From the IMG/VR virus record IMGVR_UViG_2541047852_000002: a stretch of 32,213 bases of DNA; one strand, 5' to 3'. This DNA is from a virus (taxonomy: Duplodnaviria > Heunggongvirae > Uroviricota > Caudoviricetes). Positions 28,557 through 32,213 of this stretch are shown piece by piece; position 1 is the first letter of the stretch, and each line of letters starts with the position of its first letter. The position numbers were made by a program, and so were the translations under genes. The notes below the pieces were generated by a model. It worked only from the letters and a program-made list of their open reading frames with translations, ran no database searches and was not told the origin of the DNA.

Positions 28557-28757
28557 TCCTGTAAGGTGACACTTAAGCGTGTCAGAACTGCGCAATAACA
28601 ACCTTCACTTTTCCTTCCGCGTCTTTAGATTCCAGATCGGTTTTCACGCCCAAAGGATTATTTATGTAGCAATCCGGGTCATATACAAACAAGATCAACG
28701 TATTGAACCGCCCCGGGAATCCTGGAGACTAAACTTCCTGAGAAAGAGGTAAACAGG

Positions 28758-29084
28758 ATGACTAAAAATACTCGTTTTTCCCCCGAAGTCCGTCAACGGG
28801 CAGTCCGTATGGTTCTGGAAAGTCAGAGCGAATATGACTCACAATGGGCGACAATTTGTTCCATTGCTCCAAAGATTGGCTGTACGCCGGAGACTCTGCG
28901 TGTCTGGGTTCGCCAGCATGAGCGGGATACCGGGGGCGGTGATGGAGGGCTCACCACCGCTGAACGTCAGCGTCTGAAAGAGCTGGAACGTGAAAATCGT
29001 GAACTGCGCCGCAGTAACGATATCCTTCGCCAGGCTTCCGCTTATTTTGCGAAGGCGGAGTTCGACCGCCTCTGGAAAAAATGA
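28758..29084 (+). CDS. IS3-family transposase OrfA
   Basis: Identical to 888-1214. Confidence 0.93.
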
Positions 29085-29971
29085 TGCCACTGCTGGATAA
29101 GCTGCGTGAGCAGTACGGGGTCGGACCGCTATGCAGCGAACTGCATATTGCCCCGTCAACGTATTACCACTGTCAGCAACAGCGACATCATCCGGATAAA
29201 CGCAGTGCCCGTGCGCAGCGCGATGACTGGCTGAAGAAAGAGATACAGCGCGTATACGATGAAAATCACAAGGTATACGGTGTGCGTAAAGTCTGGCGTC
29301 AGTTGTTACGGGAAGGTATCAGAGTGGCCAGATGCACTGTGGCACGTCTCATGGCGGTTATGGGACTTGCCGGTGTTCTCCGGGGTAAAAAGGTCCGTAC
29401 GACCATCAGCCGGAAAGCCGTTGCCGCAGGCGACCGCGTAAACCGTCAGTTCGTGGCAGAACGACCTGACCAGCTGTGGGTGGCTGATTTTACTTACGTC
29501 AGCACATGGCGGGGCTTCGTCTATGTGGCGTTCATCATTGATGTGTTTGCCGGATACATCGTGGGGTGGCGGGTCTCATCGTCCATGGAAACGACATTCG
29601 TGCTGGATGCACTGGAGCAGGCGTTATGGGCCCGTCGACCGTCCGGCACGGTCCATCACAGTGATAAAGGTTCTCAGTATGTATCGCTGGCCTACACACA
29701 GCGGCTTAAGGAAGCCGGATTACTGGCATCAACAGGAAGTACAGGCGACTCGTATGACAACGCGATGGCGGAGAGCATCAATGGTCTTTACAAAGCGGAG
29801 GTAATACACCGTAAGAGCTGGAAAAACCGTGCAGAAGTGGAACTGGCCACACTCACGTGGGTGGACTGGTATAACAATCGACGATTGCTGGAAAGGCTGG
29901 GCCATACTCCTCCGGCAGAAGCAGAAAAAGCTTATTATGCTTCCATCGGAAACGATGATCTGGCAGCCTGA
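29081..29971 (+). CDS. IS3-family transposase OrfB
   Basis: Identical to 1-891; A6 run at 29076-29081 at the OrfA/OrfB overlap. Confidence 0.93.
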
Positions 29972-30736
29972 GTTCACAGATAAAACACTCTCCAGGAAAC
30001 CCGGGGCGGTTCATATCGCAGTCTTGGTGAGCGCGGTAGCGCGCCATATCAATAAGCAACTCTCCACCAACTTTACCCGCTCCCAGAGATTCACGGGTTT
30101 TCTTCACCTCTATCACAATTTTCTCTTTTTTCAAAAGAAAGTCCTGTCTTGAGGCCGCGCCCGCAAAGCTGGGGGTATACTCTTCCGCCCTAATATCATT
30201 AAAATGAAGCGTCAGCAGTGCATAAATCAAATCCTGTACGTCATACTCATCATTAACTTCAAGCGGCGCACGGCCGTTGTACCGCCTCTTTAACTGGCGA
30301 ACAAAGGTCGGAAACCTGTTAAGAATATTAAGTACGAGGCTCAGCGGCGAACCTTCTTGAGGAGTATTAGTACTGACAGCAGAGTGCGCAAGATCATCTC
30401 TCGCCGCATCAAACAACGGTTTATAACTTTTGATCAGTGTATTGTAATTAGAAGACCACCTGCTGTTTACAGTATTGAAGTCATTGTAATAATCAGACTC
30501 TTTTCCGTAGCTGTCCTCTATTAACTTTTTCACTCTGGCGATCCAGTTTTTATATTTACCAGAATCAACATAGGTTTCCATAGTGTGAGTGAGAACGTTC
30601 TGCGCAGTATATTTTGTGGAAATGAGCGCATCGTAATCTTTCTCAAGCGCCCTAAATCTTTCTTCCAGTTGTAGATTTGTCATAGTGCCTTCCAGGCTGT
30701 ATAGTCGGATAACAAGGTCTGTGCGTGGATTTGCCC

Positions 30737-31642
30737 CTATATTTCCAGACACCTGTTATCACTTAACCCATTACTGGCTTGCTGCCGTAGATATTCCCGT
30801 GGCGAGCGATAACCCAGTGCACTATGCGGATGCCATTCGTTATAATGCTCGAACGCCTCTGCAAGGTTCTTTGCTGCCGTTAACCCGTCTGGTTTGGGCA
30901 TGACACTGATGTAGTCACGCTTTATCGTTTTCACGAAGCTCTCTGCTATGCCGTTACTCTCCGGACTCCGCACCGCCGTGCTCTTCGGTTCAAGCCCCAA
31001 CATCCGGGCAAACTGCCGTGTTTCATTAGCCCGGTAGCATGAACCATTATCCGTCAGCCACTCTACTGGAGACGCCGGAAGCTCGTTGCCGAAGCGGCGT
31101 TCCACCGCTCCCAGCATGACGTCCTGTACTGTTTCACTGTTGAAGCCGCCCGTAGTGACCGCCCAGTGCAGTGCCTCACGGTCACAGCAGTCCAGCGCGA
31201 ACGTGACTCGCAGTTTTTCTCCGTTATCACAGCGGAACTCGAACCCGTCAGAGCACCATCGCTGATTACTTTCTTTCACAGCCACTCTGCCTGTATGTGC
31301 CCGTTTCGATGGCGGTACAGCAGGTTTTCGCTCAAGCAACAGCGCATTCTGGCGCATGATCCGGTAAACACGTTTGGCATTGATCGCAGGCATACCATCA
31401 AGTTCTGCCTGTCTGCGAAGCAGCGCCCATACCCGACGATAACCATACGTGGGCAGCTCTCCGATAACATGGTGTATACGGAGAAGCACATCCGTATCAT
31501 CAGTGTGACGACTGCGGCGGCCATCCATCCAGTCATCGGTTCGTCTGAGAATGACGTGCAACTGCGCACGCGACACCCGGAGACAACGGCTGACTAAGCT
31601 TACTCCCCATCCCCGGGCAATAAGGGCGCGTGCGCTATCCAC
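30737..31642 (-). CDS. insD: IS2 transposase InsD (OrfB)
   Basis: 301-aa ORF recognised as IS2 InsD. Confidence 0.93.
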
Positions 31643-31965
31643 TTTTTTGCCCGTCCATATTCAACGGCTTCTTTGAGGAGTTCATTTTCCATCGTTTTCT
31701 TGCCGAGCAGGCGCTGGAGTTCTTTAATCTGCTTCATGGCGGCAGCAAGTTCAGAGGCAGGAACAACCTGTTCTCCGGCGGCGACAGCAGTAAGACTTCC
31801 TTCCTGGTATTGCTTACGCCAGAGAAATAACTGGCTGGCTGCTACACCATGTTGCCGGGCAACGAGGGAGACCGTCATCCCTGGTTCAAAGCTCTGCTGA
31901 ACAATTGCGATCTTTTCCTGTGTGGTACGCCGTCTGCGTTTCTCCGGTCCTAAGACATCAATCAT
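31600..31965 (-). CDS. insC: IS2 transposase InsC (OrfA)
   Basis: [26 protein letters not shown]... recognised as IS2 InsC; track ORF extends upstream to 32010 but the start is ATG at 31965. Confidence 0.93.
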
Positions 31966-32213
31966 CTGCTCTCCAATGACTAGTCTAAAAACTAGTATTA
32001 AGACTATCACTTAAATAAGTGATATTGGTTGTCTGGAGATTCAGGGGGCCAGTCTAGTGCGTATGGAAATTCTACCATACTTAGCCTTCTTTTCTTCACA
32101 CTGGGCGTAACAGCCATTCTGTCCAGCCCCCCTAGCGTGATCTTACCTGCTGCGGCATTCGGTTGTCTTAGCTCCGGAATAATATTCGGAGATGCATAAC
32201 TGTCCAGTGCCAT

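Follow-up and report, generated by a model that had tools for sequence, protein, structure and literature searches.

A dead copy of a candidate single-protein sensor-nuclease gene, disrupted by two insertion sequences in an Escherichia coli prophage remnant

AgaN, the nuclease of the long-B Argonaute (BPAN) systems, is a non-specific DNase whose isolated nuclease domain is toxic, whose N-terminal domain is autoinhibitory, and whose activity depends on octamer assembly (PMC13535254). A restriction endonuclease (REase) of the PF18742 family is an alternative effector in variants of the Detocs system (Rousset et al., bioRxiv 10.1101/2023.01.24.525353, Fig. S8), and GAPS1 is a single anti-phage protein, encoded on mobile islands, that is triggered by a capsid protein and brings about dormancy (Mahata et al., bioRxiv 10.1101/2023.03.28.534373). 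The locus described here lies in IMGVR_UViG_2541047852_000002, a 32,213-nt stretch of DNA from a virus of the Caudoviricetes (the window), which corresponds exactly to positions 1219184-1251396 of the Escherichia coli genome Eco_23-2678. At the end of the window, on the minus strand, stands a nuclease gene that is dead twice over in this strain, with the insertion sequence (IS) IS2 located 5' of its ribosome-binding site and an IS629-type element at codons 223/224. What remains is probably the inactivated form of an uncharacterised defence candidate, a sensor-nuclease made of one protein and encoded by a monocistronic unit of promoter, leader, gene, and terminator; the product has two domains and 262 residues.

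The gene was restored by removing the two insertions. The first is an IS629-type element of the IS3 family (1310 bp, 28704-30013, plus strand), recognised by its sequence ends, TGAACCGCCCCGGG...CCCGGGGCGGTTCA, and by its open reading frames (ORFs), orfA (28758-29084) and orfB (29081-29971). It is flanked by a TAT target duplication (28701-28703 and 30014-30016) that is a single TAT in the intact allele. The second is IS2 (1331 bp, 30726-32056, minus strand), with the termini TGGATTTGCCCC...GGGGGCCAGTCTA and ORFs at 31600-32010 and 30737-31642, positioned between two copies of GTGCG (30721-30725 and 32057-32061) that correspond to a single CGCAC in the intact allele. Both elements are complete: each has its two termini and a transposase encoded by two ORFs through frameshifting, and each lies between direct duplications of 3 bp or 5 bp, respectively. 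The names IS629 and IS2 are assigned from the lengths (1310 and 1331 bp) and termini; RefSeq labels both elements only as 'IS3 family transposase'. In silico joining of 28400-28703, 30017-30720, and 32057-32213 gives a sequence of 1165 bp, which is present at 100% identity and without gaps in 107 complete E. coli genomes, including those of UTI89, S88, APEC O1, IHE3034, and the type strain ATCC 11775. These exact matches establish that the empty sites are real and that both insertions are simple transpositions into a known intact allele. The original prediction, made from the sequence of the window, had proposed two independent simple insertions with intact TAT and GTGCG duplications, the excision of which would restore two minus-strand ORFs overlapping at an ATGA; reconstruction and translation agree with it on each of these points. 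Three complete genomes, SCU-116, MS20673, and Eco_23-2678, carry both insertions. Junction probes restrict each insertion to these same three related genomes and detect no complete genome with one insertion alone, and hence the order of the insertions cannot be read.

The larger restored ORF runs from an ATG at 30683 to a stop codon at 28584-28582 and encodes 262 residues. Codons 1-223 (30014-30683, minus strand) specify an N-terminal helical domain and the nuclease core through D181, E192, and K194, and codons 224-262 plus the stop codon form a 3' fragment (28582-28703, minus strand) that reconstruction and translation show to be severed by the IS629-type element. In RefSeq, the intact protein is WP_000183405.1, described as 'hypothetical' or 'PD-(D/E)XK nuclease domain-containing', and PGAP reports the 3' fragment in the identical genome Eco_23-2678 as a 38-aa 'PD-(D/E)XK nuclease domain-containing protein'. 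The C-terminal residues, ~112-262, are a putative PD-(D/E)xK nuclease of the PF18742 (REase_DpnII-MboI) family: the Pfam match (E 9.5e-49, 165.3 bits against a cut-off of 27) covers residues 117-261 over profile positions 3-149 of 150, and no second Pfam family, DpnII included, is found on the protein at E values up to 1. A search of 5.8 billion proteins yielded 2483 homologues, the best 120 of which all contain PF18742 and are mostly 255-291 aa long. In 28 aligned homologues, extending down to 39% identity, D181, E192, K194, E167, E168, D231, and P232 are invariant, and the catalytic motif takes the form D181-x10-E192-V-K194. Many of the enterobacterial homologues are misnamed 'malate dehydrogenase' in public records (P0004, P0007, P0011, P0014, P0017, and others in the set collected here), a propagated mis-annotation. 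A protein search of a phage collection returned no match.

The AlphaFold2 model of the protein (pLDDT 81) comprises a helical N-terminal domain, a disordered linker (residues 103-110), and an alpha/beta C-terminal domain. Residues 1 to ~105 are a helical domain that has no Pfam description, modelled as four helices (3-21, 41-59, 64-70, and 79-101) and a beta-hairpin (25-38). The C-terminal domain has the predicted alpha-beta-beta-beta-alpha-beta core of the PD-(D/E)xK nuclease superfamily, with the catalytic residues D181, E192, and K194 placed on strands 182-184 and 189-195. The proposal of an N-terminal helical region followed by a restriction-endonuclease-like segment with D-x10-ExK spacing is thereby borne out by the predicted fold, by the PF18742 match, and by the invariance of the motif. 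The IS629-type element interrupts the gene after codon 223 and costs the protein its final 39 residues. Lost with them are core strand four (224-231) and the invariant positions F228, D231, P232, N238, G241, D245, and L246.

The second restored ORF, of 65 codons, ends in the ATGA overlap with the start of the nuclease gene. Its first 52 codons occupy 32057-32213 and the other 13 occupy 30720-30681, both on the minus strand, and the final base of the window is the A of its ATG. In UTI89, a TAG lies eight codons 5' of this ATG, showing that the ORF is complete at 65 codons and does not extend past the window. The original prediction had interpreted the two ORFs as a translationally coupled operon encoding a toxin/antitoxin-like or nuclease-plus-regulator pair, and the presence of the ORF in E. 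coli and its ATGA overlap with the nuclease start would suit a 65-aa antitoxin or regulator. The remaining evidence speaks strongly against such a partner. The product has no family match in Pfam, PADLOC, NCBIfam, or PHROGs, and the ORF is annotated neither by PGAP in any inspected genome nor by any other gene caller. Upstream DNA was compared among ten homologous loci in which the nuclease is 60-89% identical, taken from Pantoea, Enterobacter, Morganella, Pectobacterium, Salmonella, Klebsiella, Serratia, and two plasmids. The full-length frame is open in E. coli only; at the other loci it closes after 0-45 codons, broken by stops or by indels of 1 and 5 nt. Codons 46-49 of the ORF, moreover, overlie a conserved -10 element, and neighbour clustering in 83 loci reveals no conserved partner, small or otherwise, the only recurring neighbours being integrases/recombinases and, at three loci, Abi-family genes. 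A two-gene operon is thus very improbable, and the pairing part of the earlier proposal has to be given up. Judged from these comparisons, the 65-codon ORF is a non-coding, chance open frame that spans a putative promoter and leader.

A shorter version of the coding interpretation deserves separate consideration. The terminal 19-20 codons alone stay open at 8 of the 10 loci, from an (A/G)TG within the motif ATGGTAGAAT to a stop at the main ATG (an ATGA or TAATG overlap), and such a frame could specify a leader peptide (MVEF...KAL) that steers translation of the nuclease by coupling or attenuation. The differences within this frame, however, are distributed over the three codon positions as 110/91/95, with no third-position excess, and the synonymous to non-synonymous codon pairs number 26/152, a fraction equal to that of the two control frames (20/155 and 24/146). 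A 5-nt deletion in the IncX1 plasmid pHP2 runs the frame into the main ORF, and in Serratia silvae the frame is shifted. Its start codon (ATG, 32078-32076) lies within the putative -10 element and would therefore be absent from the mRNA made from that promoter. Fixed spacing and shared descent can by themselves keep a frame of 20 codons open, and a leader peptide is accordingly considered unlikely.

The same upstream DNA has the features expected of a promoter and a 5' leader. Aligning homologous upstream regions in sets of 6, 7, and 10 delimits a putative promoter region of the nuclease gene (32062-32126, minus strand) that contains an extended -10 element, TGGTAGAAT (32077-32069, minus strand), invariant across the aligned loci. 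The conserved core, (A/G)TG-N-TAGAAT, corresponds to the extended -10 consensus TGnTAGAAT and stands 49 nt from the start codon at 7 of the 10 loci, with the conserved blocks CCAGTGTGAA upstream of it. The TGnTAGAAT pattern occurs three times in the window, compared with 0.75 occurrences expected by chance, and is therefore meaningful through its conservation alone. The 3' part of the leader (30684-30725, minus strand) contains the Shine-Dalgarno sequence GGAAGG (30693-30688), and the arrangement GGA(A/T)GGCAC-TATG at the start codon is conserved in the ten loci. An Rfam scan of the leader detected no family. The IS2 target duplication begins 8 nt past the -10 element, between the putative promoter and the ribosome-binding site, and IS2 thus appears to separate the promoter from the nuclease gene. 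At the other end, a GC-rich hairpin with a T-run (28502-28523), identified from terminator-like sites on both strands of the UTI89 locus (13048-13065, mapped back), lies between the nuclease gene and a convergent ORF of 97 aa, which indicates a monocistronic unit. As reconstructed, the unit would comprise a promoter, a leader of ~42-49 nt, one gene, and a terminator, at the end of a decaying prophage that faces ssrA.

Two other observations concern this upstream region. A TGGAC-N14-G(T/C)CCA dyad (32125-32102, minus strand), followed by CCAGTGTGAA, is conserved in most of the enterobacterial and plasmid homologues and could be an operator for some regulator. Just past the end of the window, between ssrA and the nuclease promoter, a stretch of the UTI89 locus (11629-11771) gives a sub-threshold Rfam match to PrrB/RsmZ (20 bits, with a gathering threshold of 44) and has a strong terminator hairpin at its end; the match is probably due to chance.

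The N-terminal domain of the nuclease is found in a variety of other proteins. A profile built from residues 1-112 of 20 family members gave 303 matches at E<1e-3 among 1.84 billion representative proteins; in the 150 of these that were listed, most matches start within a few residues of the N terminus, and many of the proteins are not of the ~260-aa size. Pfam analysis of 64 full-length matches identified C-terminal domains of HEPN type (RiboL-PSP-HEPN in 10, DUF4145 in 8, and Ymh in 2), PF18742 (8), and CAP12/Pycsar-type TIR domains (7), along with single cases of TIR_2, GNAT, and EAD7. The HEPN-type fusions carry the RNxxxH motif. The N-domain profile finds the TIR version P0142 at E 3.4e-11, and this protein in turn aligns from end to end with PDC-S35, a PADLOC candidate (E 7.6e-77). 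A DUF4145 neighbour of the Pectobacterium homologue was considered as a paralogue sharing the N-terminal domain and was rejected (hhalign probability 0.2). The combination of one N-terminal module with alternative toxic effectors is the usual mark of sensor-effector immune proteins. Tentatively, then, the N-terminal domain of ~105 residues could define a family of one-polypeptide immune proteins that has not been described before, in which a sensor or assembly module is joined to interchangeable effectors (PF18742 DNases, HEPN RNases, Pycsar/CAP12-type TIR domains, GNAT, and EAD7). WP_000183405.1, from the E. coli B2 prophage, would be the DNase version, and repeated knock-out by IS elements would reflect a cost of autoimmunity.

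The fusions also bear on whether the protein is simply a solitary restriction endonuclease, either a DpnII/MboI-like enzyme specific for GATC, to which a Dam-protected host would be immune, or a type IV enzyme that attacks phage DNA carrying modifications. Small type II enzymes are of similar size, enterobacterial hosts are Dam+, and the neighbouring genes in the window target T4-type modified phages. The association of the same N-terminal domain with HEPN RNase, TIR, and GNAT effectors, however, argues against a reader of DNA sequence or of modified bases. Homologues are also found in Bacteroidota, Clostridia, cyanobacteria, Planctomycetota, and archaea, and no methyltransferase is recurrent among 139 proteins flanking distant homologues, nor is one present in the window island or at the annotated homologous loci. 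The absence of a DpnII match, described above, and the non-specific DNase activity of AgaN, the nearest characterised relative, point in the same direction. A restriction endonuclease of either kind therefore has a small share of the probability, and the reading as a sensor-nuclease is retained.

The setting of the gene in E. coli is that of a defence island. In UTI89, the nuclease gene (UTI89_RS14400) closes a prophage that has Mu-like tail genes, ~580 bp away from ssrA; beyond it come the convergent 97-aa ORF and then genes for a GIY-YIG and a DUF262 protein, with a DinI pseudogene between these two. The 97-aa ORF (WP_000174562.1, hypothetical; 28201-28494, plus strand) has no family in Pfam-independent libraries and is not beside the homologues in other genera. 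The product of the GIY-YIG gene (27184-27990, plus strand) is a near-identical match to PD-T4-3, a validated anti-phage gene (PADLOC, E 8.6e-137), and that of the DUF262 gene (24276-26225, minus strand) matches the PADLOC model for a type IV methyl-directed restriction enzyme over its full length. These two genes and the nuclease gene make up a defence island, bounded by the tail-fibre genes on one side and ssrA on the other. The suggestion of a defence role in the original prediction is strengthened by these adjoining genes, although not in the form of a pair with a partner protein. At 22511-24174, opposed tail-fibre assembly genes lie beside a truncated recombinase gene in what looks like the remnant of a Gin/Cin-type invertible host-range segment.

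Beyond E. coli, a genome-wide scan gave 80 loci in many bacterial phyla and archaea, the protein being mostly ~250-265 aa in length, and homologues are present on 367 plasmids, most of them conjugative. On IncX1 pHP2, the nuclease gene is a lone gene flanked by one for a resolvase and one of the Abi family. The Morganella homologue is in a prophage beside a Lit-like Peptidase_U49 gene, the Salmonella homologue is in an island beside an Abi_C gene, and the Pectobacterium homologue is likewise in an island. No Argonaute gene is located beside the nuclease gene at the inspected loci or in the window, where the neighbours are ssrA, the 97-aa ORF, and PD-T4-3, and no Piwi/Argonaute family is recurrent among the 139 flanking proteins. 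Pfam and PADLOC scans of these 139 proteins gave a heterogeneous picture in which matches to GajA, Old, and type I S were few; with this heterogeneity and no usable control, enrichment of defence genes in the flanks was dropped as a line of evidence.

Why two IS elements should have entered one small gene is a separate question. Selection against a costly module had been offered as one explanation, and further independent insertions were indeed found in other strains. In E. coli FY26 (locus 2246-3459), an IS629-type element lies near codon 87 of the nuclease gene, in E. coli AH21I008 (locus 2323-3492), ISEc52 lies near codon 94, and there is one further split allele. Overall, at least four independent IS events (IS2, IS629-type twice, and ISEc52) have occurred in ~0.9 kb, in 6 of 113 genomes. 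In comparison, a stretch of the same length in the PD-T4-3 gene has at most one split, and the DUF262 gene has ~5 splits in 1.9 kb in 306 genomes. The excess over these controls is suggestive, not significant (roughly p 0.1-0.2), and with so few events, selection against a costly nuclease cannot be told apart from neutral decay or a hot spot for insertion.

Neutral decay of a defective prophage, or a hot spot for IS3-family elements, is favoured by a little as the origin of the two insertions in the window, notwithstanding the suggestive excess over the PD-T4-3 and DUF262 controls. The two insertions occur only together, in three related genomes, and each junction probe matches 7-13 places in the host genomes. 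The same 32-kb remnant carries a third IS629-type copy in the Q gene, a stop in a circularization gene, and the DinI pseudogene. The third copy (window 1 to ~1310, minus strand) has the same transposase as the element at 28704-30013 and truncates the antiterminator Q gene; it adjoins chromosomal glaH, indicating that the early half of the prophage is missing, and looks like an IS-associated deletion. The 'DNA circularization protein' gene (~16767-18095, plus strand), which is intact in UTI89, has an internal stop that divides it into ORFs 16725-17690 and 17760-18095, further evidence of prophage decay.

With respect to mechanism, the analogy to AgaN, Detocs, and GAPS1 suggests how the intact protein might work. 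The N-terminal domain would keep the nuclease inactive and serve as a sensor or assembly module. A phage-derived cue would then lift the inhibition, probably by oligomerisation, and sequence-nonspecific cutting of DNA would lead to abortive infection or dormancy. The promoter, the trigger, and the anti-phage role are likewise inferred. Several points weigh against this overall interpretation. The homology to AgaN is confined to the nuclease domain, the N-terminal domains having no detectable relation. The identification of the upstream region as promoter plus leader is drawn from conservation, and a simple sigma-70 consensus scan did not call the TGnTAGAAT site, since this site has no good -35 element. 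The 19-20-codon frame over the start codon, kept open at 8 of 10 loci, leaves a small probability for a leader peptide. The flanks of the distant homologues are heterogeneous, and their recognisable defence genes are too few to support enrichment in defence islands for the family as a whole. PADLOC lists no system for the 262-aa protein itself, and no experiment on this nuclease family was found, a literature search by protein accessions being empty. On balance, the sensor-nuclease remains the probable identity of the restored gene.

The copy in the window is a pseudogene, and its value is mainly as a pointer to the intact gene. A single gene, intact from promoter to terminator, is present in well-studied extraintestinal pathogenic E. 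coli (ExPEC) strains, namely UTI89, S88, APEC O1, and the type strain of the species, and on numerous plasmids of IncX1 type, where it can be tested, and it is missing from current defence catalogues. If the family is defensive, it would offer a compact system in which to study how one helical module senses infection and turns on different toxic domains. Two annotations merit correction: the 'malate dehydrogenase' labels are wrong, and the ATGA-coupled upstream ORF is better read as promoter and leader.

Among described systems, BPAN provides the closest relative. The sole sequence relative in the PDB is EcbAgaN, which serves a long-B Argonaute system as its nuclease (E 3.4e-6, residues 140-233), and the PADLOC Aga_Helical-REase models match the C-terminal half of the protein only (E 1e-26). 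Similar to AgaN/bAgaN (PDB 23wq; PMC13535254; PMC10620215), the candidate has a D-x10-E-V-K motif and a layout of helical N-terminal domain plus nuclease. The two differ in length (390 aa in AgaN and 262 aa here) and in context, the candidate having no adjacent Argonaute gene; with no AgaN-type N-domain match either, it does not belong to the long-B Argonaute systems. PDC-S35, a single-gene candidate in PADLOC, shares the N-terminal helical domain and the single-gene layout, whereas its effector is a TIR domain of CAP12/Pycsar type where the candidate has PF18742. At E<=0.01 the PDC-S35 models do not detect the window protein, which is therefore not a member, and a literature search found no paper on PDC-S35.

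Detocs resembles the candidate in that the PF18742 nuclease family serves as an immune effector. It differs in being a three-gene phosphorelay with the effector on the response-regulator protein, and the candidate has neither DtcA/DtcB nor a receiver domain. GAPS1 is similar in combining a C-terminal PD-(D/E)xK nuclease and an N-terminal sensing region in a single protein. GAPS1 (WP_005477165.1) is longer, however, and its motif, deduced from mutagenesis primers, is D313-x12-D326-A-K328 in contrast to D-x10-E-V-K; the N termini of the E. coli GAPS1 homologues also differ, as judged by eye and not by alignment. The PADLOC library used is that of 2023, which has no GAPS1 model, and GAPS1 is treated here as an analogue, not a relative. 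The DpnII/MboI type II enzymes share with the candidate the name of the Pfam family and, in general outline, the REase fold. No cognate methyltransferase stands beside the nuclease in the window island or at the annotated homologous loci, which places it outside type II restriction-modification, and its N-terminal domain is common to effectors that are not DNases. A literature search for a tie to DpnII/MboI beyond the Pfam name gave nothing relevant.

In Shedu (SduA), too, one protein joins a regulatory N-terminal domain of variable type to a PD-(D/E)xK nuclease that acts as an oligomer, and Foldseek gives a weak match to the Shedu nuclease domain (8ti9). The DUF4263 Pfam match of Shedu is absent from the candidate, which represents a separate nuclease family within the superfamily. 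The candidate would be a new member of the known class of immune proteins that combine a sensor with a PD-(D/E)xK effector, and the N-terminal domain that it shares with PDC-S35 and with HEPN proteins is the most interesting by-product of the comparison.

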